From Eubacteriales bacterium (GTDB lineage Bacteria > Bacillota > Clostridia > Oscillospirales > CAG-382), in contig JAZSLS010000100.1 of assembly GCA_045535465.1 (NCBI GenBank), positions 559 through 64,558 of the forward strand: a stretch of 64,000 nt of DNA, written 5' to 3'. Both the position numbers and the translations under genes were made by a program. Positions 741 through 9,716 of the stretch are shown here, one piece after another. Numbering within the stretch: the stretch's first letter is position 1; each line of letters begins with the position of its first letter. The notes under the pieces are model-generated. The model saw only the letters and a list, made by a program, of their open reading frames with translations. It was not told the DNA's origin and did no database searches.

Positions 741-904
741 CACTTTTTGCAAAAAAATAGGGCTTTTATGCCATTTTTTTGCTTTTTATTGCTTTGTTAT
801 GGGGACACCGTGTAAAAAAATACAAAAAGTTAGTACCATCATAACAAAATGTTCATTTTTTAGATGTAAACTGTTACCAAATTTTTTAATATGGAGATGT
901 TTTT

Positions 905-2026
905 TTGTTTGAAATAAAAAAGCCGTTACCGCAAAAGCGTTTTCTTGCTTTGTTGGCTGCGATTATTGTTGCGGTAACGGCGGTTACAGTTCCGTTTTTT
1001 ATGGCGGATGATAGTCAAAGTGCTGTGTTGTACGGCGCAGCGGCAGAAAATACTTTTATAAAAAACGGCTACGGCTTGTACGTGGACGGCGTTTTTATAG
1101 CCGCTGTGGAAGAGGAGAAAGCCGTAGACGGTGTGCTTTCAAAAGCGGCGGATGCGTTGGCGGCAGCTTACGGCACGCCAAAGGGCGCCAACAGCCTTTG
1201 TAACGACGTGCAGGTCGTTGAGGGCGCATATTTTAAAAACAGCTTTGCAAACGCAGAGGACGTGCTTTGCCTCCTCGGTTGCTTGGAAGGCGACGCAAGC
1301 TTTGCGGTATATACTGTCAGCGGCGAGCTTACAGACGTAGTGCTTAACGTAAGCACTACCGTAAACACAAAAAAAGAAGAAAGCCTTGAGGCGGGCTACG
1401 TTTTGGTGGGTACTGACCTTTTGGCAAACGGCGAGGAAATAGTTGCCAAGGAAAGCGTAGACGGCGTAAACCTTAACGAGTACAGCGTTACCTACGTTAA
1501 CGGTGTTAGAACGTCATCTTCGCTTATAGGCAGTACTGTTATAACAGCTCCCGTGCAAGGGGAGAAATGGTGTGGTACGGATAAGGGAGCTACCCTTATG
1601 TCGGCGGGTGACAGGTTTATGTTACCTTGCGCAGGCTGGGTTACCTCCTGGTACGGTTCAAGATATGTTTTCGGCGGTCTTGATAACCACAACGGTCTTG
1701 ACTTTTCGGGCGAAGGCGGCAGATACGGCGACCCTATTTTTGCGGCAGAGGACGGTATAGTCAGCTATGCGGATTGGCACGGTGCTTACGGTAAAAAAAT
1801 AACCGTTGACCATTCTAAGGAGATATCTACCATTTATGCCCATTGCAGTAATATAATAGTAAACGTAGGGGACGTTGTTCGTAAAGGTCAGATAATTGGC
1901 TACATAGGCGCTACCGGCAGAGTAACAGGCGCACATCTTCACTTTGAGGTGTGGAAAAACGGTGTAAGAACCAACCCCAAGCCCTATATAGACTGGTCTG
2001 CATATCAGTGGGACAAAGTAAAATAG
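905..2026 (+). CDS. membrane-anchored M23/LytM family peptidoglycan endopeptidase
   Basis: TTG start. N-terminal TM helix (FLALLAAIIVAVTAVTVPFF). C-terminal M23 motifs HNGLDF and TGAHLHFEV. Confidence 0.85.
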   Translation: MFEIKKPLPQKRFLALLAAIIVAVTAVTVPFFMADDSQSAVLYGAAAENTFIKNGYGLYVDGVFIAAVEEEKAVDGVLSKAADALAAAYGTPKGANSLCNDVQVVEGAYFKNSFANAEDVLCLLGCLEGDASFAVYTVSGELTDVVLNVSTTVNTKKEESLEAGYVLVGTDLLANGEEIVAKESVDGVNLNEYSVTYVNGVRTSSSLIGSTVITAPVQGEKWCGTDKGATLMSAGDRFMLPCAGWVTSWYGSRYVFGGLDNHNGLDFSGEGGRYGDPIFAAEDGIVSYADWHGAYGKKITVDHSKEISTIYAHCSNIIVNVGDVVRKGQIIGYIGATGRVTGAHLHFEVWKNGVRTNPKPYIDWSAYQWDKVK

Positions 2027-2062
2027 TCTACCAAATTAATTTTATATATGGAGGATACGTAA

Positions 2063-3409
<1,347 letters not shown>

Positions 3410-3469
3410 GATTGCGATTGGCAAAAAAGGCACAGACCGCAGAAAAATAATATAATAAGTTATAATGTA

Positions 3470-3503
3470 GGTAAGCGAAGCTTCGGCTTCGCTTACCTTA
3501 TTG
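3470..3503 (+). terminator. stem-loop terminator after gdhA
   Basis: GGTAAGCGAAGC-TTCG-GCTTCGCTTACC is a perfect 12-bp stem (3470-3497) followed by TTATTG. The T tract is weak. Confidence 0.6.
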
Positions 3504-3558
3504 ATATGATTTTAATTTTTACGCTTTGGACAAACCGAACAAAAGTTCGGTAGAGGGC

Positions 3559-3587
3559 TTGATTTTTGGAATATGCCGTGTTATAAT
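3559..3587 (+). promoter_or_regulatory. sigma-A type promoter of the cassette (TTGATT-17-TATAAT)
   Basis: TTGATT at 3559-3564, a 17-nt spacer, TATAAT at 3582-3587; about 80 nt upstream of the ATG at 3666. Confidence 0.65.
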
Positions 3588-3665
3588 AAAAGCGTAAGAG
3601 GGAATATGTTGCGTCACTGCACTTAAAATGCGGTGGCGCTTTTTCTATGCCAAAACGGAGGTAAA

Positions 3666-4934
3666 ATGAAGGAAATACTAATAAGCGTAAACAAAAAAAT
3701 AGCCACAGCGGCAGAAGGGCAGTTTATAGTAAACGGCAACAGCGACGTTGTGGCAAGGTTTGCTTTTGACAGCGAATGGGAAAACAGCGGAACCAAAACC
3801 GCTGTTTTTCTGCTTTCGGACGGCAGCGCCTACTACGAAATAATTAAGGACGGCGTTTGCCCCGTACCCGTTTTGTATAACACCGCCTACGTTAAAATCG
3901 GCGTAATAAGTGCATCCGTGTATACAAGCACTTCGGCAAAGGTTGTCTGCCGCCCTTGCATAACCGACGAAAACGCAGGTGATGCTCCCGTAACGGAGGA
4001 TAACTACGCCAAGCTTTGCACCTATATCGACGAAAAAGCTGCTTCCGTAGAAATAAGTAAAGCGGGCAATTGGCTTATAAACGGCAAGGATACGGGCGTA
4101 TCCGCCAAGGGAGAGAAAGGCGATCGTGGCATACAGGGTCAAAAGGGGGATAAAGGGGACAAGGGCGACAGCTACGTTTTAACGGCTTCCGATAAAGCCG
4201 AGATAGCAAAACAGGTGGAGCACGCAAATATAGTACAAGCGCCAAGGTTTGTAAACTCTATAAACGAAATGACGGACGTTAGCAAATCCTACGTCCTTGC
4301 CTCCACGGGCAGAATTTGGGCGCATTTGGACACAACTGCTATACAAACTGTAACGGAACAGATAGGCGACACGGCTAACCCATTCATAGATAACGCCCGT
4401 TTGGGCTCCGACGGCTCAACCGCCACCGGTTACGACGGATACGTTGCAACGCCGTACATCGACCTCCTTGCCTATCCCGTGCCGTTTACCTTGCATCTTG
4501 AAGGAGCGACCTTTATACCCACCGCAACCGACAGCTACACAAGAATATGCTCTTACACTGCCGGCAAAACAAAAATATCCCAAGGCAACCACACAAACAC
4601 CACCGTAGACAGTTCTCTTAACGTTGGCGACTCCGACGTTACAGTGAATGGCAATACCGCTACAATACTGTTTGACGAAACCCCGAAAACGAACAACGCA
4701 AACAACGACGGTGTGCTTCAGTTTATAAGGTTTTCGGGCAAGGGAAGTGCAGCTACTGCCAAAGCCTACGTTACTTATGAAGCCGAGGTAACGGGCGGCG
4801 GCTGGGTTGATACGGGCACAAGCTACGCACCTGCTTTGACCGAGAACGAGAAAACCGAAATAGCAGAAATGGCAGCAAACATTATAGATGCCGAGCTTCT
4901 TTCTCTTGTAGGCAACGGAGAGGTAACGGTATGA
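3666..4934 (+). CDS. phage tail-fibre-like protein with collagen-like Gly-X-Y repeat
   Basis: I place the start at ATG 3666 (GGAGG 5 nt upstream) rather than the GTG at 3633. GEKGDRGIQGQKGDKGDKGD lies at 4110-4169, preceded by WLINGKDTGVSAKG, a pattern I recognise from Firmicutes prophage fibre proteins. No signal peptide. Confidence 0.75.
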   Translation: MKEILISVNKKIATAAEGQFIVNGNSDVVARFAFDSEWENSGTKTAVFLLSDGSAYYEIIKDGVCPVPVLYNTAYVKIGVISASVYTSTSAKVVCRPCITDENAGDAPVTEDNYAKLCTYIDEKAASVEISKAGNWLINGKDTGVSAKGEKGDRGIQGQKGDKGDKGDSYVLTASDKAEIAKQVEHANIVQAPRFVNSINEMTDVSKSYVLASTGRIWAHLDTTAIQTVTEQIGDTANPFIDNARLGSDGSTATGYDGYVATPYIDLLAYPVPFTLHLEGATFIPTATDSYTRICSYTAGKTKISQGNHTNTTVDSSLNVGDSDVTVNGNTATILFDETPKTNNANNDGVLQFIRFSGKGSAATAKAYVTYEAEVTGGGWVDTGTSYAPALTENEKTEIAEMAANIIDAELLSLVGNGEVTV

Positions 4935-6100
4935 GGCTTGAAAGTGCAAACCTAATAAAAAAGCTTATCTCTGCAATAGATGCCAAAACGGGCTATAAGC
5001 ACTTAGACCTGACCTCTGCTGTGCAAAGCCTTTTTGACGGAGTGGCTATGCCTGTCGGTACGGTTGCGTTGCCCGCAGCAAGCTCATTTCAAAGCCCTCA
5101 AAGCATAAAAGCTCTGATAAACGCCGCAAATACCGTAACGGGCAAGGAGGACAAAACTCTTACCGATGCAGTGCAAAGCCTTTTTGATTTGTATGTGGGT
5201 GAAAAGCCAATCTACTCCTTCGGTGTACTGTCAGATCTGCACATACAGTACGCAACGGGTGTGGAGGATTTAAACAGAGCCTTTGCCTATCTTGAAAAAC
5301 GTGTTCCGTTTACTTGTATTTGCGGCGACCTTGTTGCGTGGGCAAGCGTGGAAAATATGGCGCAATACAAGAGCTTGGTGGTAGATACCCCTTGGGATAT
5401 GGAGATATACGAGGTAGCGGGCAACCACGAAAGCTACCCCGAAATGGGTGTAACAGGCAACGTTAACGAAGCCCTTTATACTCAAAGCACGGGCAACGGC
5501 TTGTATTATTCCTTTGAGAAAAACGGGGATGTATTTATAATGCTAAGTCTTAAGACGGACGTGCCAAGCGTTACTTTCCCAAGCGGAGCGCTGGCTTGGC
5601 TTGAAAACACTCTTAAAGCTAACAAAAACAAGCGTTGCTTTGTTTTTGAACACGTTCAAGATGCAAACGACCTTACGGCAGACCCTTCCCATAGGTACAG
5701 CAATATTCTCGCAGGCGTAGACGGTGACAAATTTTTAAGCCTTATGAGAGAGTATAAAAACGCCGTGTGGTTTCACGGTCATACTCATTTATCTGTCACT
5801 GCCGATAGAAAGGGCGCATATCCCGTAGGTCACGAGGCGGGCTACAAATCCGTTCACGTTCCATCCTTGGTAAGCCCAAGGTATTACAACGCCAATACAA
5901 ACGCCGTTGAGGATTATTACTGCAAAAACGGTGTAACGGTTTACGGCGGTGTACACGCCGAAGGCTACGTCTGCGACGTTTATAAACACAAAATAGTGCT
6001 TCGCTCCATAGATTTTGCAAAGCAATACTTCGACGCAAGCTGGAACGCCTACTACGAAGCGGAGCCGATGGACGAGCATATTTATGCTTTGATAACTTAG
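4931..6100 (+). CDS. calcineurin-like metallophosphoesterase with duplicated N-terminal module
   Basis: ATGA overlap with the upstream gene. Phosphoesterase motifs: DLH, GDLV, GNHE, GHTH. A 50-aa internal duplication (LTSAVQSLFDG / LTDAVQSLFDL). No signal peptide. Confidence 0.8.
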   Translation: MRLESANLIKKLISAIDAKTGYKHLDLTSAVQSLFDGVAMPVGTVALPAASSFQSPQSIKALINAANTVTGKEDKTLTDAVQSLFDLYVGEKPIYSFGVLSDLHIQYATGVEDLNRAFAYLEKRVPFTCICGDLVAWASVENMAQYKSLVVDTPWDMEIYEVAGNHESYPEMGVTGNVNEALYTQSTGNGLYYSFEKNGDVFIMLSLKTDVPSVTFPSGALAWLENTLKANKNKRCFVFEHVQDANDLTADPSHRYSNILAGVDGDKFLSLMREYKNAVWFHGHTHLSVTADRKGAYPVGHEAGYKSVHVPSLVSPRYYNANTNAVEDYYCKNGVTVYGGVHAEGYVCDVYKHKIVLRSIDFAKQYFDASWNAYYEAEPMDEHIYALIT

Positions 6101-6118
6101 AGAAAGGCAAGGAGGAAA

Positions 6119-6565
6119 ATGAAAATACAAACTGTAAAAATAGCAATTTCGGCAGTCTTTGCGGCAATAGCGGGCGTATACGGTAAGCTGGCTGTACCCT
6201 TTTTTGTGCTGTGTGGACTAATGCTTGCCGACTATGTAACCGGTATGACAAAAAGCTGGCAAAGGGGAACTCTTTGCTCTAAAACGGGGCTTATGGGGGT
6301 GGTTAAAAAGCTGTGCTACGGTCTTGGCGTGGTAGCTGCCGCAGGAGTAGACTATGCGGTATCCGCCATATCCCAAAGCCTTGGCTACGACGTGGGGCTT
6401 AAGCCCTTTTTTGCTATGCTTTGCGTTGTGTGGCTTATTATAAACGAGTGCATAAGCATAACGGAAAATCTTGTGCTGATAGGAGTACCAATGCCCGCTT
6501 TTCTTATAAAGGCGGCAAAAAGACTAAAAACAAGCGTGGAGGATATAGGCGATGACGAGGAATAA
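6119..6565 (+). CDS. phage holin (Phage_holin_4_1 / LL-H type)
   Basis: 148 aa with 3-4 TM segments. Motifs ADYVTG and INECISITEN, plus a charged C-terminal tail DIGDDEE. GGAGG RBS. Confidence 0.8.
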   Translation: MKIQTVKIAISAVFAAIAGVYGKLAVPFFVLCGLMLADYVTGMTKSWQRGTLCSKTGLMGVVKKLCYGLGVVAAAGVDYAVSAISQSLGYDVGLKPFFAMLCVVWLIINECISITENLVLIGVPMPAFLIKAAKRLKTSVEDIGDDEE

Positions 6566-7298
6566 GCCCATAAGGATATATATATCACCCGCCAACCATC
6601 CAAAGCCCTACGCAAACGGTAAAAACGAAAAAAGCGTTATGGAAAAGCTGGCGGCGTATCTTTTGGAATTTCTTTCGGAATACGAGGGAATAAAGCCCAT
6701 ATACACCACCGTTTTTAATAAGGACGGTCAATATACGGGCAGACCCGAGGAGGCAAGAAGCTTAGAGTGCGATTTGTACGTGGCGCTCCACAGTAATGCG
6801 GGCGGAGGTAAAGGAGCCTGCCTTTTTTATCACCCTTCTTTTCCATTGTCAAAGGCGTTGGCGTTGGGGATAGTGGGCGAGCTTAACCGTGTAAGTCCCA
6901 TAAAAAGCAACCGTGCCGTTCAGCCTGCCATATATTCGTGGGACAAGGGCGCTTTCAATTTCGGCGAGCTTAGAGTACCCGCATCCTATGGTATAGCTCC
7001 CGTACTTATCGAGCACGAGTTCCACGATACGCCTAAGGGGGCAGCGTGGCTTGCGGAAAATACGCAGGCAATAGCAAAAGCCGATGCCCGTGCCATAGCG
7101 TCAGTACTTGGCGTTTACAAAAAAGGCGACGTTACAGGCGACGGCAAAACCGATAATCTTGATGCTGCTCGTATACTTATGTACGATGCAGGCATTATAG
7201 AGCTTACCGAGGAGCAAAAACGCATAGCCGATATAAATTGCGACGGTGAAGCCGATAACCTTGACGTAAAACAGATATTAAAAATCGACTCAGAATAA
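6552..7298 (+). CDS. N-acetylmuramoyl-L-alanine amidase (Amidase_3) endolysin with C-terminal type-I dockerin
   Basis: Overlaps the holin by 14 nt. Amidase_3 motifs YVALHSNAGGG and LIEHEFHD. The C-terminus has two Ca-binding dockerin loops, GDVTGDGKTDNLDAARIL and ADINCDGEADNLDVKQIL. No signal peptide. Confidence 0.85.
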   Translation: MTRNKPIRIYISPANHPKPYANGKNEKSVMEKLAAYLLEFLSEYEGIKPIYTTVFNKDGQYTGRPEEARSLECDLYVALHSNAGGGKGACLFYHPSFPLSKALALGIVGELNRVSPIKSNRAVQPAIYSWDKGAFNFGELRVPASYGIAPVLIEHEFHDTPKGAAWLAENTQAIAKADARAIASVLGVYKKGDVTGDGKTDNLDAARILMYDAGIIELTEEQKRIADINCDGEADNLDVKQILKIDSE

Positions 7299-7300
7299 CA

Positions 7301-7335
7301 AAACGCCCCGTGGATTTTTCCACGGGGCGTTTTTG
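7301..7335 (+). terminator. rho-independent terminator after the endolysin
   Basis: CGCCCCGTGG-ATTTTT-CCACGGGGCG followed by TTTTTG. Confidence 0.85.
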
Positions 7336-7339
7336 CGCT

Positions 7340-7414
7340 TGGAGCTGGTGAGGGGATTTGAACCCCTGGCCTATTGATTACGAATCAATTGCGCTACCAC
7401 TGCGCCACACCAGC
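7340..7414 (-). tRNA. tRNA-Thr (anticodon CGU)
   Basis: The reverse complement GCTGGTGTGGCGCAGTGGTAGCGCAATTGATTCGTAATCAATAGGCCAGGGGTTCAAATCCCCTCACCAGCTCCA folds as a cloverleaf. Anticodon loop TTCGTAA; CCA is encoded. Confidence 0.95.
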
Positions 7415-7502
7415 AAGTGCCAAAGCTGCGCAAGACGAATTATACCACATAAAACTCCGTTTTGTCAAGCATTTAATTGCCTTTTACCTTTGGTTTTTCG
7501 AC

Positions 7503-7530
7503 ACCCAAAAACAAAAGCTTACATATTATA
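7503..7530 (+). promoter_or_regulatory. possible sigma-K type (mother-cell) promoter upstream of dpaA
   Basis: AC (7503-7504), a 17-nt spacer, CATATTATA (7522-7530), matching AC-N16-17-CATAnnnTA. No good sigma-A -35 element is present. Confidence 0.4.
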
Positions 7531-7557
7531 ATAGCATAAACAACAGGGAGGAACTTT

Positions 7558-8415
7558 ATGAGTGATATAAAAATTGCATTGATAGGCGGTGACCGCAGAC
7601 AGGCAATAGTTGCCTCGTCCCTTGCCTTGAGGGGAGTAGAATGCGCAGTGTTTGGTATTGACGGTGCGGATATAGGCAAAGCCACAAGATGTACAGACCT
7701 TGAGGGTGCACTAAGCTATGCTTCCGCAGTGGTATTGCCGCTACCGGTAACCAGAGACGGAAAACATCTTAACACGCCACTGTATGATGGAAAAATAAGC
7801 CTTAAGCAGTTGGATGACCTGTCACCGCCAAGAGCTTTGCTTTTGGGCGGTATGATAAAGCAGGAGGATTTTGAGGGCAGATGGGTAAGCGACTACTATG
7901 AAAAAGAGGAGCTTATGCTTTTAAATACAATTCCCACGGCGGAGGGAGCCATAGCCATAGCAATGGAAGAGCTACCTACCACCCTTCACGGAACAAAATG
8001 TCTTATAATGGGTTTGGGCAGAGTAGGAAAGACCCTAGCGCTTACGCTTCTTTCTTTAGGAGCAAAGCTAAGCGTTGCCACTCGTAACCCTTCCGAAAAG
8101 GCAGTATGTAAAATACTGGGAATAGAGGTAGTGGAATACAAGAATTTATCCGATGAAATTGGCGGCTTTGGACTTATATTCAACACAGTTCCCGCCACGC
8201 TTTTGACGGGCAGCCTTTTGCAAAGGGTAAAGGATACCACCCCCATAATAGACCTTGCCACTCACCCGGGTGGGGTAGATGCCGCAGCAAGTGCCACTAT
8301 GGGCAAGCGTATTATATGGGCGCTGGGGCTTCCCGGCAAGGTTGCGCCCCAAACGGCGGGTGAATATATAAGCCAAACGGTTATAGGTATACTTGAGGAG
8401 GAAAATATTATATGA
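7558..8415 (+). CDS. dpaA: dipicolinate synthase subunit A
   Basis: SpoVFA-like. Two Rossmann-type regions (IALIGGDRRQ, IMGLGRVGKTLA). 4-nt overlap with dpaB. Confidence 0.9.
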   Translation: MSDIKIALIGGDRRQAIVASSLALRGVECAVFGIDGADIGKATRCTDLEGALSYASAVVLPLPVTRDGKHLNTPLYDGKISLKQLDDLSPPRALLLGGMIKQEDFEGRWVSDYYEKEELMLLNTIPTAEGAIAIAMEELPTTLHGTKCLIMGLGRVGKTLALTLLSLGAKLSVATRNPSEKAVCKILGIEVVEYKNLSDEIGGFGLIFNTVPATLLTGSLLQRVKDTTPIIDLATHPGGVDAAASATMGKRIIWALGLPGKVAPQTAGEYISQTVIGILEEENII

Positions 8416-8975
8416 CGGCATTTGCATTTTGCGGTTCTTTTTGTAATCACAAAGAAGCTCTTACACAGCTTAAGAGGCTTGTAAACACGGGCGAAACAGT
8501 GCTTCCCATCTTTTCGGAAAAGGTGCAAAGCACCAACACTCGCTTTGGCACGGCCACGGACTTTGTTGCGGAAGCGGAGCTTATCTGCGGCAGAGAGGGC
8601 GTAAAAAACATAGTGGAAGCGGAAAAGGCGATGACCAATTCAGAGGTGGACTGCCTTGTTATAGCTCCCTGTACGGGTAATACCTTGGCAAGGCTTGCTC
8701 TAGGTATAAGCGACGGCGCAGTGACTATGGCGGCAAAAGCCCACCTTAGAAACAAAAAGCCTGTTCTTATTGCCTTCGCCTCCAACGACGCTCTAAGCGG
8801 AAGCCTTAAAAATATGGCAACGCTTCTTGAAAAGAAAAACATCTACTTTGTGCCGATGCGTCAGGACGCACCGGAGAAAAAGCCCACGTCGTTGGTTTGT
8901 GACTGGCAGTATCTGCTTCCTGCAATAGAGGCTGCAAAGGCAGGAAAACAGCTTCATCCCCTTATAGTGGTTTAA
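8412..8975 (+). CDS. dpaB: dipicolinate synthase subunit B (flavoprotein)
   Basis: SpoVFB-like flavoprotein fold: AFCGSFCN, APCTGNTLARLALGISD. Confidence 0.9.
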   Translation: MTAFAFCGSFCNHKEALTQLKRLVNTGETVLPIFSEKVQSTNTRFGTATDFVAEAELICGREGVKNIVEAEKAMTNSEVDCLVIAPCTGNTLARLALGISDGAVTMAAKAHLRNKKPVLIAFASNDALSGSLKNMATLLEKKNIYFVPMRQDAPEKKPTSLVCDWQYLLPAIEAAKAGKQLHPLIVV

Positions 8976-9017
8976 GCAGACAAAAGCCTGTGCATAATAA
9001 TATAAAGGAGGCATAAT

Positions 9018-9716
9018 ATGGCAGATATGGAGAAAAATCTTTGCTCGCCTACCTCGGAAGCCGAGGCAGCGGCTGCAAAGGCGGAGGACCTTGGCGGAAT
9101 AACTATGCACACGGGCAGGGGCGTGATACACGCTTTGATTATAGCGGGTCAGATAGAAGGACATCTGGAAGCACCCGTAACGGCAAAATCCACTAAGTAC
9201 GAGCAATGTATACCTACACTTGTGGCGGTAGAGGAAAGCAGCGAGGTGGAGGGGCTTTTGATTTTAATAAATACCATAGGCGGTGACGTGGAAGCCGGGC
9301 TTGCTATAGCAGAGCTTATATCCGGTATGAAAAAGCCAACGGTATCCTTGGTTTTAGGCGGCGGTCACTCCATAGGCGTTCCGTTGGCGGTGTCTGCGAA
9401 AAAGTCCTTTATAGTGCCCTCGGCAACTATGACCATACACCCCGTAAGGACAACCGGCTTGGTGATAGGCGTACCTCAAAGCTTTAGCTACTTTGAAAAG
9501 ATGCAGGACAGAATAACGGATTTTATAGTAAAAAACAGTCACATAGGCGCAAAGCGTATAAAAGAGCTTATGCTTAACACCAACGAAATGACCACGGATA
9601 TAGGTACCGTTCTTGACGGGGTGGAGGCGGTAAGGGAAGGGCTTATAGATGCGGTGGGAGGGCTTGGAGATGCCTTGGACGCTCTACACACTATGGCAAA
9701 GGAAGGAAAAGGTTAA
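9018..9716 (+). CDS. ClpP-fold protein, TepA (translocation-enhancing protein)-like
   Basis: ClpP/crotonase-like core LILINTIGGDVEAGLAIAELI...TMTIHPV. AGGAGG RBS. In B. subtilis tepA lies in the same region as spoVF. Confidence 0.75.
   Translation: MADMEKNLCSPTSEAEAAAAKAEDLGGITMHTGRGVIHALIIAGQIEGHLEAPVTAKSTKYEQCIPTLVAVEESSEVEGLLILINTIGGDVEAGLAIAELISGMKKPTVSLVLGGGHSIGVPLAVSAKKSFIVPSATMTIHPVRTTGLVIGVPQSFSYFEKMQDRITDFIVKNSHIGAKRIKELMLNTNEMTTDIGTVLDGVEAVREGLIDAVGGLGDALDALHTMAKEGKG

Follow-up and report, generated by a model that had tools for sequence, protein, structure and literature searches.

A holin-linked amidase with a dockerin module in a chromosomal lysis cassette of probable phage origin from herbivore-gut Clostridia

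The endolysins PlyPSA of Listeria phage PSA and CD27L of a C. difficile phage combine an N-terminal Amidase_3 catalytic fold with a C-terminal targeting module, lack a signal peptide and are encoded next to a holin gene. The targeting modules of endolysins are thought to recognise wall polymers. We analysed a 64,000-nucleotide stretch of a metagenome-assembled genome (MAG) of a Eubacteriales bacterium (contig JAZSLS010000100.1; hereafter the window), in which an open reading frame (ORF) at 6552..7298 on the + strand encodes a 248-amino-acid (aa) protein, termed amidase-dockerin here, that resembles PlyPSA and CD27L in each of these respects. It differs from them in that its C-terminal module is a dockerin and not a carbohydrate- or peptidoglycan-binding domain, and in that the window copy lies in a chromosomal remnant and not in a phage.

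Two kinds of chromosomally encoded systems are also comparable. CwlC of Bacillus subtilis, an amidase for mother-cell lysis during sporulation, has about 250 aa, an N-terminal Amidase_3 domain, a small C-terminal wall-targeting domain and no signal peptide. However, CwlC ends in wall-binding repeats, is expressed from a sigma-K promoter and is not known to have a holin partner, whereas the window protein has a dockerin, a sigma-A-type promoter and apparent phage ancestry. Type 10 secretion systems (Serratia ChiWXYZ, C. difficile TcdE/TcdL and Salmonella TtsA) are domesticated holin/endolysin pairs, and they resemble the window cassette in that a phage lysis cassette is kept in the chromosome under selection without the remaining phage. 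None of them is known to involve a dockerin.

Cell-wall hydrolases coupled to a cohesin-dockerin system, as the window enzyme would be, have been described among cellulosome-linked proteins. Two reports place a GH25 lysozyme on the scaffoldin ScaK of Ruminococcus champanellensis (PMC6780208, PMC6403190), a dockerin-bearing lysozyme and a dockerin-bearing DD-carboxypeptidase were reported from a rumen metagenome (PMC6487960), and the idea of a "lyticome" has been proposed (PMC6403190). These enzymes differ from the window protein in being of the GH25 or DD-carboxypeptidase type, the ScaK link is provided by a scaffoldin and not by a dockerin, and the three sources (PMC6780208, PMC6487960, PMC6403190), as far as checked, describe neither a holin link nor a phage origin. 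Full-text searches for dockerin with endolysin, amidase, holin, prophage or lysin retrieved no description of a holin-linked, phage-derived dockerin amidase, and the papers and supplements on Ruminococcus bromii list holin and amidase genes as accessory, with no dockerin link. As far as we found, the holin-linked dockerin endolysin is new, whereas Amidase_3 endolysins with C-terminal binding domains and cellulosome-linked peptidoglycan hydrolases were already known. An initial reading of the window from its letters (the first-pass annotation) had considered the architecture uncharacterised; this roughly holds for a holin-linked dockerin amidase but not for dockerin- or scaffoldin-borne peptidoglycan hydrolases in general.

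All conclusions below rest on MAG sequence. We favour, with a probability of roughly 0.55, the reading that the protein is a phage-derived, holin-dependent amidase in which a dockerin replaces the C-terminal wall-binding module and docks to host cohesins, and that the chromosomal copy is a domesticated lysis module.

Domain architecture of the amidase-dockerin protein

Related loci are cited below by L numbers (L001-L038 etc.) and family proteins by P numbers, and ORF coordinates are window positions. Pfam searches placed an Amidase_3 domain (PF01520; 45.8 bits, curated cut-off 27) at aa 21-183 (nt 6612-7100) of ORF 6552-7298 and a Dockerin_1 domain (PF00404; 30.2 bits, cut-off 22.9, E 5e-7) at aa 191-241 (nt 7122-7274). 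The first-pass annotation had proposed this order of an Amidase_3 domain and a dockerin with two calcium-binding segments. The two segments that it quoted (GDVTGDGKTDNLDAARILMY and ADINCDGEADNLDVKQILKI) are present in the translation, the region that it marked (7125-7292) corresponds to aa 192-247 and is the dockerin region, and the Pfam scores of both domains, together with intact calcium loops, bore the description out.

In an alignment of 26 homologues with 50-88% identity, H16, E26, H80 and E154 of the amidase were invariant, and the spacing of these residues suggests that they represent His/Glu/His zinc ligands and the catalytic Glu. The AlphaFold2 model of the 248-aa protein had a mean predicted local distance difference test score (pLDDT) of 89.5 and showed an Amidase_3 fold followed by three helices. 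The best Foldseek matches were Amidase_3 structures with a probability of 1.0 (AmiC2 5emi, Rv3717, CwlD 7rag, CwlV 1jwq, PlyPSA 1xov and CD27L 3qay). By profile and modelled fold, ORF 6552-7298 encodes an N-acetylmuramoyl-L-alanine amidase, with predicted cleavage of the MurNAc-L-Ala bond. No hydrophobic stretch is present at the N-terminus, where residues 7-13 make up the first catalytic-domain strand in the AlphaFold2 model, and the protein therefore lacks a signal peptide.

The calcium loops of the dockerin lie at aa 193-204 and 227-238, in two duplicated segments of about 22 residues that each consist of a loop and then a helix. Within these loops, D193, D197, G198, D204, D227, D231, G232 and D238 were invariant among the 26 aligned homologues, and AlphaFold2 predicted helices at 202-212, 220-226 and 236-247, with a pLDDT of 82-94 across the block. 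A family dockerin profile matched solved dockerins of Clostridium thermocellum, Acetivibrio cellulolyticus, Ruminococcus flavefaciens and R. bromii; the matches included C. thermocellum Xyn10B (1ohz_B, E 1.5e-8), a GH9 protein (4fl4, E 7.6e-10), 2ccl_B, and R. bromii Amy16 (E 3e-7) and Amy12. The ratio of nonsynonymous to synonymous substitution rates (dN/dS) of the dockerin codons was 0.058 against the closest orthologue (L034). Because the calcium-loop residues are invariant, the profile matches solved dockerins, the helices are predicted and dN/dS is low, the dockerin match is beyond chance.

The window dockerin is atypical in having T for N at calcium position 3 of repeat 1 and T/A for V/I at position 8, and its Pfam score of 30.2 bits is below the 46-54 bits of its relatives. 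In PDB, the family dockerin came closest to dockerins of type I and to those of R. bromii amylases, and an X-module was absent. The first-pass annotation had named the module a type I dockerin. This name is no more than a family label, since the type of a dockerin is defined by its partner cohesin and the Pfam family name Dockerin_1 covers all types.

Relatives of the protein revealed how the C-terminal part varies. In P0049, the same amidase (70% identity) ends in a different module of about 65 aa, present twice, in place of the dockerin, P0057 and P0058 carry the dockerin plus one copy of this module, P0055 carries the dockerin plus an extra module that differs from that of P0057/P0058, and P0071-73 consist of the amidase alone. 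The ~65-aa module of P0049 is beta-rich, has no Pfam match and is SH3-like by eye only. Since relatives bear another C-terminal module instead of or beside the dockerin, the domain comparison indicates that the dockerin sits in the slot of the C-terminal wall-binding module and that this slot is interchangeable with other C-terminal modules, as had been proposed for the dockerin from the window alone.

Phage relatives and the resident cassette

Searches of 5.8 billion proteins yielded an amidase-dockerin family of 74 clusters, about 70 of which have a length of about 250 aa and both domains. Every genome with a family member is an uncultured MAG. Goat caecum, sheep rectum and rabbit are among the sample types, and the labels read Clostridia, Eubacteriales or Oscillospiraceae bacterium; the family is restricted to uncultured herbivore-gut Clostridia, and several of its genomes bear 2-4 copies. 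In RGIG1823 (JAFQHL010000045.1), a single contig bears two amidase-dockerin copies at a distance of 38 kb. Behind the resident copy (L017), the tRNA-Thr 3' end recurs as an exact duplicate of 23 nt (L017:10802-10824), and integrase, CI-like repressor and replication initiator genes come next. Ahead of the second copy (L026) lie genes for tape measure, tail, baseplate wedge, Tail_P2_I and tail-fibre proteins and for a holin, and an intact tRNA-Thr comes after it (L026:11060-11134). This gene order shows an intact prophage of ~38 kb, integrated in tRNA-Thr(CGT), the last gene of which is a predicted amidase-dockerin endolysin. In a second prophage context (L009), genes for a 3,294-aa giant tail protein, BppU_N, LRR_5 and a holin accompany the amidase-dockerin gene. 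Neighbour-joining trees of both the holin and the amidase set the prophage clade apart from the resident clades and placed the window with L034, L007/L012 and L013. The holin and the amidase-dockerin of the RGIG1823 prophage are 56% and 70% identical, respectively, to the resident pair immediately to the left.

In the window, the holin gene (Phage_holin_4_1; 6119..6565, + strand; Pfam 2.7e-27; phrog_199 holin) lies directly upstream of the amidase-dockerin gene. Its 3' end overlaps the start of the latter by 14 nt, and the amidase-dockerin is translationally coupled to the holin. The pair thus has the features of a holin-endolysin cassette, namely an adjacent holin and a hydrolase without a signal peptide. 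The protein had been described as a phage endolysin in the first-pass annotation. Its lysis pedigree is supported by the overlapping Phage_holin_4_1 gene and by the prophage homologue, but the window copy lies in a host-flanked remnant of 3.7 kb and not in a prophage.

This remnant comprises four genes, encoding a tail-fibre-like protein, a metallophosphoesterase, the holin and the amidase-dockerin. PHROG and Pfam scans identified host genes on its upstream side, with gdh (glutamate dehydrogenase) 224 bp away and a G5-M23 peptidase gene. On the downstream side are a terminator, tRNA-Thr, dpaA, dpaB, a ClpP-like protease gene, L21/Prp/L27 and homologues of Obg and aconitase. The tRNA-Thr(CGT) gene (7340..7414, - strand) has its 3' end towards the amidase gene and represents the attachment (att) site of related temperate phages. 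Between the two genes, a sequence scan identified a perfect 15-bp-stem hairpin flanked by A- and T-runs (7300..7333, no strand assigned), with the layout of a bidirectional terminator. The PHROG and Pfam scans detected no integrase, capsid, terminase or tail-tube gene in the window, and no second copy of the tRNA-Thr 3' end, which would be an att duplicate, was present in the window. Because these structural and integration genes and the att duplicate are absent, the window contains a four-gene cassette and not a prophage; a full prophage was also ruled out by the presence of host gdh and the G5-M23 peptidase gene among the upstream ORFs.

The holin-amidase pair was found among the same host genes in the resident contexts (window, L034, L007/L012, L001/L016, L015, L019, L022, L027, L028, L014, L018 and L038), flanked by ClpP-like or gdh to its left and usually by tRNA-Thr-dpaAB to its right, and accompanied by at most one or two tail-fibre-like genes. 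The cassette occupies the same chromosomal neighbourhood in at least 10 species-level MAGs. A comparison of window positions 900-9700 with L001, L016 and L026 revealed that cassette, tRNA-Thr, dpaA and dpaB form a block that has opposite orientations, with respect to gdh/M23 and ClpP-like/L21 on its flanks, in the window's lineage and in the L001/L026 lineage. The cassette is therefore older than this inversion.

We then assessed selection, mainly by comparing the window with L034, whose amidase-dockerin protein is 88% identical. The dN/dS values were 0.115 for the tail-fibre-like gene, 0.139 for the metallophosphoesterase, 0.115 for the holin and 0.083 for the whole amidase-dockerin gene, in which the amidase part (0.083) and the dockerin part (0.058, as given above) were evaluated separately. 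The synonymous divergence (dS) of the four cassette genes was 0.6-1.06, near that of the flanking genes (dpaA, 1.05; dpaB, 0.80; ClpP, 0.59). The comparison of L015 with L019 gave dN/dS values of 0.10 (holin) and 0.11 (amidase-dockerin) and a dS like that of the flanks, and between L001 and L022 the protein divergence (76%) tracked that of dpaA and dpaB (78%). All complete cassette copies are intact ORFs. By these estimates, the four cassette genes are under purifying selection and co-diverge with their flanks. The simplest reading of these sequence comparisons is that the resident cassette is an operon that came from a phage, has been inherited vertically and is under selection, and the chromosomal cassette is probably a retained, domesticated lysis module. 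The window copy behaves as a host gene, because the remnant is kept at one locus in many species under purifying selection.

A promoter scan identified a sigma-A-type promoter (TTGATT-17 nt-TG-n-TATAAT) with the box GTAAGAGGGAAT behind it (3559..3602, + strand); this element marks where the cassette operon begins. The promoter is near-consensus with an extended -10 element, and across loci the box reads GTAAGAGGG(T/A)AAT. Each of the 12 distinct resident loci matched by the motif search (18 with duplicate contigs) had a single copy of promoter and box, located ahead of the first gene of the cassette, whereas the prophage loci L009, L024, L026 and L029 lacked the element. The element is located at window 3559-3644, L034:1425, L007:7162, L013:3209, L014:7921, L018:8475, L001:9400, L015:8129, L017:8123, L019:8117, L022:4943, L027:9453 and L038:9350-9440; L038 has the same layout of promoter and hairpin with a degenerate box (GATAGATAAGG). 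In the window, the leader that separates the promoter from the first gene contains a terminator-like hairpin with a T-run (3611..3644, + strand; sequence scan). This hairpin follows the box in the window's clade, and only some clades have a terminator-like hairpin. Its stem varies in sequence while pairing is kept by compensatory changes in L013, L007, L014, L018 and L038, and the hairpin is a candidate attenuator or antitermination target. The window had no Rfam match at the gathering threshold. Just upstream of the cassette promoter, L034 carries a 1.1-kb insertion (L034:281-1378) with an HTH_3 gene, a 201-aa ORF and short flanking repeats, which the window (~3536) lacks.

The partner of the dockerin and competing explanations

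According to the favoured reading, the amidase-dockerin would accumulate in the cytoplasm until the holin let it out. The dockerin would fold on contact with extracellular calcium and plug into cohesin modules of wall-anchored host proteins, and docking would keep the amidase on the producer's own envelope, providing the host-specific targeting and the retention on debris that a wall-binding module normally provides. Targeting to cohesins had also been put forward in the first-pass annotation, and it is likewise a prediction here. The chromosomal copy would not be a decaying remnant but a domesticated lysis module, controlled by the host or by the leader terminator. More speculatively, a lineage of spore-forming herbivore-gut Clostridia may have fixed the phage-derived operon as a host-controlled lysis or release device with an amidase placed by cohesin-dockerin contact, that is, a "lyticome" or a dockerin-guided, type-10-like secretion system, with related phages doing likewise and their endolysins staying on the scaffold of the killed host; we hold this wider scenario only tentatively.

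A dockerin-cohesin plug would be a targeting logic other than the recognition of wall polymers. If the favoured reading is true, strain-level specificity would be set by the scaffoldin repertoire of the host and would be easily re-engineered, because cohesin-dockerin pairs are already designer parts. It would also take the cohesin-dockerin system of gut Clostridia past the breakdown of polysaccharides and into phage lysis and autolysis, and the conserved, selected chromosomal copy would represent a fresh case of domestication of a phage lysis cassette, with apparent leader-terminator control.

Dockerin proteins of the host clade were found near the cassette loci. They include proteins other than carbohydrate-active enzymes, namely an S8 subtilase, a Doc-Big_3-SH3_3 protein, a GBS_Bsp-like repeat protein and a 296-aa Doc protein, and also several small proteins (L019:14817-17123, - strand; L019:4340-5299, - strand; L014:10888-13812; L038:14466-15356; L022:9677-11309, - strand). 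The Doc-Big_3-SH3_3 protein has an N-terminal dockerin and is encoded between ClpP and L21 in five genomes. Serpin genes adjoin the cassette in L001 and L018. The repertoire of dockerin proteins points to a non-cellulolytic cohesin-dockerin surface system in the host clade.

The closest dockerin outside the family (59% identity) belongs to P0074, a CBM9-like protein with a signal-peptide-like N-terminus from a metagenome contig. We compared residues at the specificity positions of the dockerins, of which positions 9-11 are among the classical determinants of cohesin specificity. In L038, the lysin and the neighbouring host dockerin protein both have (V/I)SPLDAS at these positions. In L019/L022, the lysins have VNSLDAA and the host proteins NSLDSS and VDSLDAA, and the lysin dockerins of the window clade have TDNLDAA/ADNLDV. 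In the few genomes in which both could be compared, and short of a statistical test, the specificity positions thus co-vary within a genome, which suggests that the dockerins of lysin and host proteins are tuned to shared partners.

Several observations weigh against a cohesin-docked, domesticated lysin. A phmmer search with CipA Coh2 and Coh7, both checked against PDB, found no cohesin among 2,899 ORFs in the 490 kb of the window and 39 loci (best E 0.07), although this is a weak test because ruminococcal-type cohesins are highly divergent and evade sequence searches (PMC13463774). A homologue search with the dockerin profile was uninformative on cohesins, as the best 120 of 999 matches were all short dockerin-only fragments. 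Dockerin proteins are normally Sec-exported, and a component of a cellulosome or amylosome is recognised by a Sec signal peptide together with a dockerin; the amidase-dockerin has no signal peptide. Dockerin-like modules are reportedly also present in organisms without cohesins. The window dockerin is the most divergent of the family (30 bits; T/A at position 8). Neither tblastn nor scans with the family alignment and P0028 detected an amidase-dockerin in any INPHARED phage or IMG/VR contig, and the link to phages is therefore drawn from prophages in MAGs. Finally, recombination with incoming phages that bear homologous cassettes at the same att site could partly explain the purifying signal.

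These points bear first on what the dockerin binds. It could be a calcium-dependent module that does not bind cohesin, but binds a wall polymer or another protein or acts as a folding switch gated by calcium, through which the enzyme would stay inert as long as it is in the cytoplasm, where calcium is low, an explanation that we consider rather improbable. The empty CipA search and the absence of the signal peptide typical of cellulosomal components would fit it, as would the wide occurrence of non-cellulosomal dockerin-like modules and the second C-terminal module of P0057, P0058 and P0055, which a dockerin that sufficed as an anchor would make redundant. However, the repeats keep the full two-fold symmetric dockerin signature, beyond EF-hand loops, and the same subtype is found on secreted host surface proteins, with specificity positions that co-vary within a genome.

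A different question is which programme the chromosomal cassette serves. The cassette is fixed at a single locus in different species, is under purifying selection and has a conserved promoter and a leader terminator of its own, as would also be expected if it had been re-purposed for a host programme, such as spore mother-cell lysis as a CwlC analogue, type-10-secretion-like protein release, or abortive lysis triggered by the antiterminator of an infecting relative. The cassette adjoins dpaA/dpaB, and CwlC shares the Amidase_3 domain, the size and the lack of a signal peptide. We nevertheless regard this explanation as unlikely, since the promoter looks sigma-A-type and not sigma-K or sigma-E, the tRNA-Thr att site accounts for the place beside dpaAB, the L038 pair adjoins an H+-PPase gene instead of dpaAB, and the cassette is absent at 75 dpaA loci of more distant spore-formers (dpaA relatives with at most 46% identity). 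A CwlC-like sporulation amidase was rejected as a candidate on account of the near-consensus sigma-A promoter with its extended -10 element, which is not a mother-cell promoter, and of those 75 loci. Inert prophage debris is strongly disfavoured: the cassette does lie at the right end of a prophage-like gene order beside a tRNA att site with the remaining phage gone, but its four genes are intact with dN/dS of 0.08-0.14 at dS of 0.6-1.0, a divergence sufficient to destroy neutral ORFs, low dN/dS and intact complete copies recur in other species pairs, and the promoter is conserved.

Dockerin proteins of viral contigs and the remaining cassette genes

The only match in IMG/VR, L036:1806-3261 (IMGVR_UViG_3300031998_000677), involves a 255-aa protein with a Cys/His-containing N-domain and a strong Dockerin_1 match (53.6 bits). 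Its gene lies between that of a 130-aa membrane protein on the upstream side and, immediately downstream, that of a phrog_297 holin. This position suggests that the protein may be a second candidate lysin type, and dockerin-tagged lysins may not be tied to one catalytic type. Four human-faecal INPHARED contigs named "UNVERIFIED Bacteriophage sp." also contain dockerins, but are probably bacterial DNA and were not used as evidence. Three of them, L031/L032/L033 (MT835815.1, MT839470.1 and MT836339.1), encode CHAP-SH3_3-Doc, CotH-like-Doc and LRR-Doc proteins with signal-peptide-like N-termini.

The first gene of the window cassette (3666..4934, + strand) encodes a collagen-like, tail-fibre-like protein with weak PHROG tail-fibre matches (~1e-5), and its L034 orthologue matches Pfam Collagen (1.4e-8). 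The mechanically called ORF begins with GTG at 3633, inside the leader hairpin; the true start is likely ATG 3666, downstream of a GGAGG ribosome-binding site (MKEILISVNKKIATAAEGQFIVNGNSDVVARFAFDSEWE). The N-terminal domain is shared with a viral-contig protein (L036:1077-1760), and other resident cassettes have it, in the form MKTITITVKEKIA..., in their first gene.

The second gene (4931..6100, + strand) encodes a metallophosphoesterase (Pfam Metallophos 5.9e-11; phrog_1649) with a duplicated N-terminal motif (IKKLISAIDAKTG...TSAVQSLFDG and IKALINAANTVTG...TDAVQSLFDL). The order of tail-fibre-like gene, metallophosphoesterase and holin is also found in L013, L010 and L034. Judged from this setting, the metallophosphoesterase is probably a phage tail-associated enzyme, and as such it may act on phosphodiester-linked wall polymers. 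In L007, the tail-fibre-like gene and the metallophosphoesterase are apparently fused, encoding one protein of 762 aa. Minimal resident cassettes of two genes have a 41-aa ORF between the consensus promoter and the holin (L001:9440-9560; also L002:2631-2756).

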